Position numbers: made by a program. Below are positions 1 through 3,000 of a DNA stretch of 7,118 nt, one piece after another. The stretch is from a virus (lineage: Duplodnaviria > Heunggongvirae > Uroviricota > Caudoviricetes): IMG/VR virus record IMGVR_UViG_2548876695_000012; one strand, written 5' to 3'. How positions within the stretch are numbered: position 1 is the stretch's first letter; each line of letters begins with the position of its first letter.

Positions 1-3000
1 ACGTGTATTTTTAGTCATCCTGTTTACCTCTTTCTCAGGGAGTTTAGTCTCCAGGATTCCCGGGGCGGTTCAGATAATCTTAGCATTGACCGCCTTTATA
101 TAGAAGCTGTTATTCAAGAAGCATTTTCAAGCAGTGATGTAAGAAAATATTACACTATTAGAAAATCTGGCATGAAATCATCATTGAACCTAACAGAGAT
201 CGAGTATAAAGAAATATTGAAGTCACACCGCAATATAAATGGAATCGATAATTCTGGTTTTACAACTGAAACAAATGAAGCTGTTTTGGCTGCACTATCT
301 GCGGAGGTAAGGGGATGCTAACTCCATACAAAAGAGCTGATGTAGAATTCGAATGGATTAGTGATCTAGAAGAACAGGGTTGTTTTTCAAAAGTATATCT
401 GGCTCATGACAGACACCTAGCTCATGACTTGGTGATTAAAGAAATAGAAAAAAAAGAAAACACTAACCACGACGACTACTTTAATGAAGCAAGGCTTCTC
501 TATAAACATGCACATCCAAATATTGTGCAAGTTCAGTATGCTGCTCAATGTGAGAGCAATATCTATATAGCCATGCCATTTTATCATAATGGTTCGCTAA
601 ACCAATTAATGAAAAAAAATAATCTTACAAGCAGGGAGATAATACGGTATTCCATTCAATTTTTAAGTGGACTTTATCATATACACTCAAAAGGTCTTAT
701 GCATTTTGATATAAAACCTAATAACATTATGATATCAAACAGAAATGAGGCCATGCTATCTGACTTTGGATTATCTCAGTTAGTCAATGAGGAATCGAGA
801 GCTGCGCCTGAGTTTGGATATCATTTTCATGTGCCACCGGAATATTTTTCTTTATCAACAAATGATTATAATTTCACATATGACATATATCAGGCAGGAT
901 TAACCATATATAGAATGTGTGTTGGACATGATAATTTTGAAAGAGAAAGATCTGCATTTAGCACGATTGAACAACTCAGAGAGTCGATAATTAATGGCTG
1001 CTATCCATTAAAAGAGTATCCTCCCCATATACATAAAAAATTAATAACAATAGTGAACAAATGCATTCATGTAGATCCAAATGAAAGATATCAATCCGTA
1101 CTAGATGTACTAAACGATCTCTCAGCTATAAGTGATGGCGTTCTTGACTGGCGTCTACAGATGACGAAACCAACTAACGGCACATGCGAATGGCAAAAAA
1201 AGTCTGGGGACGCTATACTGTCTATAGTTTTTGACGCAGAAAATTCGTCTACTACTGGTTTTCGTTTATACGATGATGGGCGGAAAAGGCGTGCTACGAA
1301 CTTAACAATATCCTCAGGATGTACCCCTACAAAACTGTATAGGTTATTAAAGGATAACTGATCATGAAAAAGCGCGAGGAAGTAAGCAAGCTGCCTCGCA
1401 GACGTGATGCAGCATTAGCGGTTCCCTACAAAAAAGATGAGTTCATAAGTCCTTCTGATGACAAAAAATTTTCAAAGGCGAAAAGTTTTACATCTACATC
1501 TCTAAAAGATAAATACTTTAAAATCTAGCCCGGCCTCAGCGCCGGGTTTTCTTTGCCTCACGTTCGCCCACCTAAAAAACATAACCAATTGTATTTATTG
1601 ATGTAACTCGCTAAACCATGCAGTTATGATCCCTGCCGCATAACCTTCATCAGCCACATTTTCAAAAATAAATTTCCTTATATATCAGAATCATACTTCG
1701 TAGAGTTAATAAATCACCAAAATTCGTACCAATAGTTCTTGATAATGTCGAACTATTGGTTCATTATTATCGTCGTCAGCAGGACGCATTACTCACCAGG
1801 GCGGTGAATATACAACGATTCGAATATGAATCTACGGCGCTGACAAAGCGCAATAACCAAAGTGAACTTTGGGGTGTGGTGAAGGGTTCATGGACGGGAA
1901 TATGTCGCACGTAAAGCGGCGAGGCCTGCGGGACTATTGCCGAATTGAAGTAGGCCGAAACAGGTCGAAATGGGTCTCCCACCTACCACACCACCAAAGT
2001 TCATCAGGAGGTCTATATGACACGCAGAACTCAGTTCAAAGGCAATTCACGTTCTCGTCGTCGTGAGCGTTTAAAGGCAAAGGCATTAGCTAACGGCGTG
2101 CTGGCCCGCGAAGAAGCAATAAGTTCAGAAGTATTACACCGCCCTACTCTAAGTAGAGCGCAGATTCAGGCTAAAGGTACTCACGAAACGCCTGAGCGCA
2201 TAGAAGACGCTAAGCCAATTAAGTTCATGGCACAGGACGTGATCTGGCAACAGAAAGAATACAGACGCAATCTGGAGCGAGCGGCCATTGTGTACGCGAA
2301 TGAGTTTGGACATAAGCAACCAGAAACTGGTGTATGTCTTCCAAACGTAGCTCTTTACGCGGCAGGCTACCGGAAATCAAAACAACTGACAGCAAGATGA
2401 CTTGTGTTGGTCGCCAGAAAATGAAATTAGGCAGCAAACCACTTATTTGAGGTGAGATATGACAAAATCATGGAGCGTACCTTTTCCTGAATCAGAAACT
2501 GAACATGATGGAATGCCTGTTTTCTGGAGATTCCAGGCGACAGTTGAAGAAGATGGGATAAAAATATTCGCACTTCAATATATAGCTTTTCATCAGACAG
2601 AGCATTATGCATGGTTGGTTCCTGCGCATTGGATTGTTAATTTTAAACCAGCACCAAATCAGTGGTTACAGGAATGGAAACAAAAGAGAAATAGATATGC
2701 AATTAAGAAAGTAGCAAAAAATGCAGAAAGATCTTTTGCATTCCCAACGAAGAAACTTGCCATTGAAAGTTTATTGCGCCGGAAGAAATACCATTTAATG
2801 AGAATCAAACAAGATTTGGCTGTTGTATCAACTCTTGTTGATGGGATGAAGAATATTGATACATCAATACCAGATATTGAATATAACTTTGGACACAACC
2901 AAGAAACAGAAAATTGGGTATTTTATTAGTACGAATAAGCACTGTGTATTCATTCCAGCGAGTGAATACACGGAGCAATGTCGCTCGTAACTAAACAGGA

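Follow-up and report, generated by a model that had tools for sequence, protein, structure and literature searches.

Stk, the abortive-infection kinase of phage 933W, and its RuvC-fold partner gene in a lambdoid prophage locus interrupted by an insertion sequence

Genes and features at the locus

We analyzed a 7,118-nucleotide (nt) stretch of Caudoviricetes DNA (IMG/VR record IMGVR_UViG_2548876695_000012; the whole stretch is called the window below), focusing on the AT-rich segment at positions 73 to 1553, which carries a gene for a eukaryote-like protein kinase between two smaller reading frames. The window is lambdoid early-left DNA lying between two inverted 72-nt ends of an insertion sequence (IS) of the IS3 family. 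Its first bases (1-72, minus strand) are the left end of such an element, with the terminal inverted repeat and the first transposase codons (IS629/IS1203 type), inserted in the gene that precedes the kinase. The genes that follow lie on the plus strand: a 3′ remnant of a homologue of L0083 from the Shiga toxin phage 933W (73-321, stop codon at 319-321), which retains codons 72 to 153 of 153 and belongs to a putative RuvC-fold partner of the kinase; the kinase gene, stk (315-1361; 348 amino acids [aa]), with the kinase domain at about residues 1-265 and a predicted C-terminal beta-sheet/helix domain at about residues 270-348; and a homologue of L0081 (1364-1528; 54 aa). An intrinsic terminator on the same strand, tM (1527-1550), closes the series and marks the end of the pRM transcript, with a hairpin and T-run at 1527-1548 (the tM annotation of 933W corresponds to 1529-1550). 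The upstream frame is open from base 73 and its stop overlaps the kinase start codon (ATGCTAA), the 54-aa open reading frame (ORF) begins 2 nt past the kinase stop, and a good Shine-Dalgarno sequence (GGAGG) is still present 7 nt ahead of stk.

An initial annotation of this segment had relied on the 348-aa ORF with its kinase motifs, the stop/start overlap, the 2-nt spacing, and the terminator, all of which are present. Its upstream ORF also exists and overlaps the kinase start as described, but it is only a 3′ fragment, bases 1-72 being the IS end. The contrast in GC content on which it remarked (∼36% against ∼50%) is likewise found, with 0.361 in positions 73-1553, 0.484 in N, and 0.487 from cIII to ea22. 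Low GC content is not unique to this segment, however, because a second AT-rich insert, at the position of 933W L0079 (2459-2929; GC content, 0.355), lies close by.

Identity with Stk of phage 933W

The kinase is Stk, the known abortive-infection kinase of Shiga toxin phage 933W, and the segment at 73-1553 forms the distal end of the repressor (pRM) operon in a lambdoid prophage of the 933W type from Shiga toxin-producing Escherichia coli (STEC). The protein matches 933W Stk (AAD25427.1) in 348/348 residues and the small ORF matches 933W L0081 in 54/54 (100% identity). At the DNA level, positions 73-1620 are 99.9 to 100% identical to 39 phage records, including 933W itself (AF125520; 99.9%), phi24B, Min27, and many Stx1- and Stx2-converting phages, and a match over at least 80% of this length occurs in 223 of 5,426 complete E. 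coli genomes. The annotated order in 933W is pM, cI, L0084, L0083, stk, L0081, tM, nutL, and N. The window agrees with it in the identical kinase, the flanking genes, the terminator, nutL, N, and the location of stk in the immunity region between cI and OL with tM behind it, cI being found past the IS in a sister genome (strain 2011C-4251; NZ_CP027388). It differs from 933W in that L0083 is broken by a 1,310-bp IS3-family element, which leaves cI and L0084 beyond the IS, and in the absence of the ea10/ssb gene from the downstream early-left region. What had been described as a free-standing three-gene island is therefore the distal part of the operon cI-L0084-L0083-stk-L0081.

OL and pL had been placed immediately downstream of these genes, and this agrees with the sequence at 1725-1767 (plus strand), where two operator-like sites (1725-1739 and 1749-1763), each with 3 to 4 mismatches relative to 933W oR3, flank a pL-like promoter (TTGATA-17-CATTAT; 1739-1767). 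These assignments are our own predictions and do not derive from the 933W annotation. Stk occupies the slot that RexA and RexB hold in phage lambda, between cI and OL on the pRM transcript, and shares with them the logic of a lysogen-expressed abortive-infection system triggered by superinfection. Unlike RexAB, which acts through a membrane protein of the ion channel type, Stk has a protein kinase as its effector, and because Pfam scans of the three proteins returned only kinase families and no RexA or RexB family, the analogy is positional only.

The trigger of Stk is understood to be HK97 gp41, and the activated kinase phosphorylates many cell proteins on tyrosine; our literature search pairing gp41 with Stk returned nothing relevant. 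stk was annotated in 1999 and functionally characterized in 2004-2011 (Plunkett 1999, Tyler and Friedman 2004, and Friedman et al. 2011). According to papers citing this work, 933W stk is transcribed together with cI in the lysogen (PMC3564112), and its product is a eukaryote-like tyrosine kinase that is switched on by HK97 infection and has little activity before it (PMC3681748). The kinase is further described as blocking replication of HK97 (PMC6356687) and as mediating abortive infection during lysogeny (PMC8008677). Separately, plating of lambda on a 933W lysogen is reported to be ∼10^6-fold lower, dependent on the lambda immunity region, an effect that is not assigned to Stk in that paper (PMC6989128). 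The proposal in the initial annotation of a kinase-based defense module was therefore correct as to function, and it was correct because the feature is the 933W Stk precedent that it cited. The module is accordingly no novel candidate, and the original finding amounts to the recovery of a known gene, which adds nothing alone.

The kinase could instead serve mainly the prophage's own biology, such as induction or the lysis-lysogeny decision, or the physiology and virulence of the host. Guo et al. (2024) reportedly found that another kinase-phosphatase module of a prophage controls both lysogeny and defense, and the reported cotranscription of stk with the repressor would suit such a role. We nevertheless hold it to be quite improbable for Stk: the phenotype reported for it is HK97 exclusion, stk left attaching and effacing lesions unaffected (PMC3681748), the kinase is described as little active before infection, and homologous gene pairs are found outside prophages, next to restriction-modification and Abi genes.

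Kinase domain, C-terminal domain, and related defense kinases

Membership in the protein kinase family is clear, with a match to Pfam Pkinase (PF00069) over residues 21-260 (E = 2.2e-46; 158.8 bits against a cutoff of 31.7), and the kinase fold proposed from motifs alone stands. The catalytic set is present and invariant across the family, comprising K42 of VIKE, D132 and N137 of HFDIKPNN, D150 of DFG (150-152), E176 of PPE (175-176), and R258. The canonical GxGxxG glycine-rich loop is missing; the corresponding EEQGCFSKV has one glycine, and only G22 is kept, together with S25 and V27. This one-glycine loop is, across the aligned homologues, a family-wide peculiarity that does not by itself argue against kinase activity. 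The catalytic loop is of the Ser/Thr type, so that the label of Ser/Thr kinase in the initial annotation holds for the motif, whereas the literature describes a tyrosine kinase. Six residues ahead of PPE, the activation loop carries Tyr169 (window 819-821), which is present in 85 of 86 family sequences; it is a plausible candidate for an autophosphorylation site and fits the reported tyrosine kinase activity.

Beyond the kinase domain, about 80 aa (residues ∼270-348) are conserved across the family, with W279 and W293 invariant. The structure predicted for this C-terminal domain (predicted local distance difference test score [pLDDT], 90.5) consists of an antiparallel sheet and, after it, a helix, and no known fold matched it; profiles of this domain and of the upstream partner gave only chance-level matches to sequences in the PDB. 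The remark that the C-terminal extension and the flanking ORFs were uncharacterized was correct, and these are also where the only new information was found.

Several characterized kinases resemble Stk in the kinase domain only. The staphylococcal Stk2, a Hanks-type kinase like Stk and the PknB/PASTA kinases, reportedly triggers abortive infection on sensing a phage protein (Depardieu et al. 2016). Unlike the PknB/PASTA kinases, Stk has no PASTA repeats and a different partner architecture, and it scores 122 bits against the NCBIfam PknB_PASTA cutoff of 450. Among PADLOC models, the best match of the kinase domain is MAD6 of the methylation-associated defense system, MADS (6.7e-50). MAD6, however, is ∼610 to 660 aa long and part of a multigene system, whereas the neighbors of stk in the window are phage genes with no other mad genes among them, and the NCBIfam MAD6 score is again 122 bits against a cutoff of 460, which speaks against membership. 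The PADLOC models for PD-T4-6 also match, the best being PDLC04042 (E = 1e-37; kinase domain only, residues 20-273). The PD-T4-6 archetype is a single gene for 436 aa (RRM76169.1; 1,311 nt) (Vassallo et al. 2022; PMC9519451). Like Stk, it is a eukaryote-like Ser/Thr kinase from the E. coli pangenome that gives phage defense, but Stk, with 348 aa, an unrelated C-terminal domain, and an apparently obligately linked upstream RuvC-fold partner, has a different architecture. We therefore rejected filing Stk under PD-T4-6, MADS, or the PASTA kinases, since every NCBIfam equivalog cutoff was missed by a wide margin; the search of defense databases that had been proposed returned kinase-domain matches without a matching architecture.

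Linkage between the partner gene and the kinase

Three independent tests agree that the kinase has an obligate partner in the product of the gene upstream, and this is the only new information that the locus yields. First, look-ups that started from the kinase, in Klebsiella, Proteus, Yersinia, Pseudomonas, Acinetobacter, Elizabethkingia, and Bacillus phage SPbetaL7, found in every case an ORF of 151 to 167 aa that ends at or overlaps the kinase start, while kinase identity falls from 77% to 39%. These upstream ORFs are mutually homologous (e.g., E = 5e-18 between 933W and SPbeta), whereas their settings otherwise bear no relation to one another, being prophage immunity regions, a moron in a tail region, an island that holds Abi_2 and an integrase, and a site by an LlaJI restriction system and ArdA. 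Second, a scan that started from the partner, with one genome per species, gave 44 loci in Gamma-, Beta-, and Alphaproteobacteria, Bacteroidota, Firmicutes, Gemmatimonadota, and Acidobacteriota, and at every one of the 44 a gene for an Stk-family kinase follows immediately on the same strand. Third, in a kinase-first scan of IMG/VR the partner lies directly upstream in 78 of 80 loci, the other two being cut by a contig edge or truncated. The ratio of nonsynonymous to synonymous substitution rates (dN/dS) is 0.05 to 0.23 for the partner and 0.05 for the kinase.

Among 1.84 billion proteins, the partner family has 445 representatives at 50% identity (E ≤ 1e-3). The name given to its members is almost always "hypothetical," and no Pfam, NCBIfam, or PADLOC model covers the family. 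A PADLOC tm_HEPN match to the 82-aa remnant in the window (E = 0.004) was rejected as chance, as full-length partners match nothing. Where the pair lies outside prophages it adjoins defense genes: in Elizabethkingia (loci L012/L013, 172-5050) an LlaJI-type restriction system, an AAA_5 ATPase, and ArdA, and in Pseudomonas (locus L008, 1708-5035) an Abi_2 protein beside an integrase. Such neighborhoods support a defensive role of the pair; a literature search for RuvC together with threonine kinases in defense returned nothing relevant.

The third gene, L0081, encodes a basic protein (16 Lys and Arg in 54 residues) rich in Ser, Thr, and Tyr, which falls in PHROG 4063 (function unknown). Homologues lie behind the kinase in Klebsiella, Proteus, and Yersinia prophages and in viral loci with a kinase identity of at least ∼48 to 56%, and more distant partner-kinase pairs lack it. 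Nonsynonymous polymorphism is below synonymous polymorphism (pN < pS) in every pair, with dN/dS at 0.29 to 0.63 where computable, and L0081 is probably a real gene and a lineage-restricted, enterobacterial accessory. A universally conserved trio was rejected because no similarity to L0081 could be detected in the small ORFs that follow the kinases of Bacillus SPbeta and Elizabethkingia; the core consists of two genes. L0084 (DUF3024) was likewise rejected as a core member, as it is absent in Klebsiella, Pseudomonas, Acinetobacter, and Elizabethkingia. A DUF3024 gene of the L0084 type also precedes the pair in Proteus prophages and not elsewhere. L0084 of 933W itself (933W record L001, 3379-3720) lies beyond the IS, with cI on one side and the partner gene on the other. 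It matches PDC-S43, a single-gene "phage defence candidate" in PADLOC (E = 4.4e-41), so that the 933W immunity operon may carry two separate defense candidates.

The partner as a non-catalytic RuvC-fold protein

Structure comparison gave the partner a RuvC/RNase H-like fold, at a sequence identity to RuvC of 12 to 13% and with a Pfam RuvC (PF02075) score below threshold (14.2 against 22.2 bits). When profiles of the partner and of E. coli RuvC are aligned, the RuvC motifs ILGID and FAIE fall opposite ILGVR and AAIR of the partner, which places Arg7 and Arg65 at the catalytic Asp7 and Glu66; this register comes from a weak hhalign alignment (probability, 1.6%). Among 78 distinct partners, Arg7 is found in 77 of 77, position 65 is Arg (75) or Lys (3), R47, E68, R78, E82, and E87 never vary, and 77 of the proteins have E140. 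The four metal-binding acids of RuvC (D7, E66, D138, and D141 in E. coli) are not retained as a set, only E140 in the last helix being kept. We infer that the partner is a non-catalytic RuvC-fold protein with a conserved charged site of its own.

Labels in current databases suggest another reading, in which the upstream gene is a genuine phage Holliday junction resolvase, functionally unrelated to the kinase, and only Stk matters for exclusion: PHROG 3875 is named "RuvC-like Holliday junction resolvase," PGAP gives "RuvC family protein" in some genomes, and the fold is clear. The substitution of the Asp7 and Glu66 positions by Arg (or Lys at the latter), the subthreshold Pfam score, and the location of the gene in an immunity operon expressed in the lysogen, away from the recombination genes, make this reading highly improbable. 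Moreover, unlike a RuvC resolvase, the L0083 family is always encoded with a kinase and never without it in the 44 loci, non-phage islands included.

An insertion sequence in the partner gene

The two window ends (1-72 and 7047-7118) form a 72-nt inverted repeat with 97% complementarity, and in alignments with 933W and strain 2011C-4251, homology to 933W begins exactly at base 73. The full element in the sister genome is 1,310 bp long, has a 3-bp target duplication (GAT), lies on the strand opposite stk, and is annotated as an IS3 family transposase with programmed frameshift (IS1203 family in related genomes). The insertion takes the first 71 of the 153 L0083 codons and moves cI, L0084, and pRM 1.3 kb further from stk. 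The same junction, with 100% identity over bases 1-7047, occurs in at least six complete STEC genomes, compared with 188 complete genomes with an intact L0084-L0083-stk junction. No outward, stk-facing promoter was found in the IS or the partner remnant. With 1,310 bp of IS in between, cotranscription of stk with cI from pRM is probably impaired here; polarity would reduce or abolish stk expression, and the disrupted module is probably poorly expressed, non-functional, or both, despite the intact kinase gene.

These alleles also bear on the idea that the pair is an addiction module resembling toxin-antitoxin systems, with the kinase as toxin and the RuvC-fold protein as antitoxin, whose main role is to stabilize a prophage or island and for which exclusion is a by-product. 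The small protein encoded first, the overlapping stop and start, and the strict co-occurrence are traits of type II systems, and the title of one of the cited papers calls Stk activation self-inflicted abortive infection. Yet an intact kinase without an intact partner, as in the at least six complete genomes above, would, if stk is not silent, be lethal for a classical toxin-antitoxin system. Nor does the partner show the DNA-binding fold of an antitoxin; it has a RuvC fold of full size, with an invariant charged site of its own. The neighborhoods (Abi_2, LlaJI restriction-modification with ArdA, and prophage immunity regions) are of a defense type. On balance we regard an addiction module as unlikely.

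Proposed mechanism and significance

Taken as a whole, we read the locus as the known Stk in the distal pRM operon, paired with a RuvC-fold protein, in a copy probably crippled by an IS, and we put the probability of this reading at roughly 85%. According to the literature, a lysogen makes Stk on the cI transcript, HK97 superinfection switches Stk on, and the infection aborts. Comparative genomics suggests in addition that Stk and the 153-aa RuvC-fold protein encoded ahead of it would work together, their genes being translationally coupled. Having lost two metal-binding carboxylates, the RuvC-fold protein is most likely a non-catalytic sensor or regulator, responding to branched DNA or a phage protein, and not a nuclease, and the conserved C-terminal domain of Stk may offer a surface for docking or sensing. 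In the present copy, 1.3 kb of untranslated antisense IS would lie between pRM and stk, and the first 71 codons of the partner are lost.

Several points weigh against parts of this account. If stk alone suffices for exclusion, the partner is dispensable for at least the exclusion of HK97. The mapping of R7 and R65 onto the catalytic residues of RuvC depends on the weak profile alignment, although the fold match and the Pfam register (residues 3-65 to RuvC 1-64) support it. The Ser/Thr-type catalytic loop sits uneasily with the reported tyrosine activity, and the specificity may be dual. Finally, read-through from pRM into stk past the IS is possible, and in the at least six complete genomes with the IS junction the kinase is 100% intact, with no sign of decay.

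We further suggest, as a tentative idea with slightly less than even odds, that Stk is the effector half of a widespread, uncatalogued two-gene system in which the dead RuvC-fold half senses a phage cue and gates the kinase, possibly via the C-terminal domain. Candidate cues would be branched replication or recombination DNA or a phage protein such as HK97 gp41. If this is true, the Stk model of 2004-2011 is incomplete, and the sensor is missing from defense catalogues in which related kinases are entered as single genes. The strict, phylum-spanning linkage to a pseudo-RuvC protein that is in no defense database points to how a prophage kinase might sense infection, and the IS629-type break in an STEC lineage provides a natural experiment on the dependence of Stk on pRM and on the partner encoded upstream.

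Other features of the window

The second IS end (7047-7118) is inverted relative to that at 1-72 and interrupts an ORF that starts at 6961 and is unbroken in the closest complete genomes. In none of the complete genomes of our collection do both IS junctions occur together. Two inverted IS copies bracketing 6,974 bp could permit inversion of the segment, or the window may be a short-read contig that ends in repeats.

Downstream of position 1553 the window continues with the pL- and operator-like sites and nutL, followed by N, the AT-rich ORF, cIII, kil, gam, bet, exo, and ea22-type genes. nutL (1785-1851, plus strand) was carried over from the 933W annotation, for which the coordinate in the 933W record L001 equals the window coordinate plus 3928. 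The antiterminator gene N (2017-2400, plus strand) is of the 933W/H-19B type, as assigned by the 933W annotation and a Pfam N_peptide match (E = 9.8e-16). For N of strain 2011C-4251, RefSeq (PGAP) gives only a 69-nt pseudogene fragment (record L002, 10260-10328), but the 127-aa ORF is intact and identical to 933W N, and the pseudogene call is an annotation artifact.

The AT-rich insert between N and cIII contains a 156-aa ORF that falls in PHROG 1636 (function unknown) and lacks a Pfam domain; a 17-nt inverted repeat (2939-2976) comes after it. The ORF looks like another moron-type gene, here of the pL operon. The ea10/ssb gene that 933W carries between L0079 and cIII is absent (window 2930-3120 compared with L001 6858-7448), which leaves a spacer ∼400 nt shorter and makes the early-left region mosaic relative to 933W, although the stk region is still 99.9% identical. 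An Rfam Lambda_thermo element, the cIII thermoregulator, is found at 3108-3166 (88.5 bits), where it overlaps the cIII start as an ordinary lambdoid feature.

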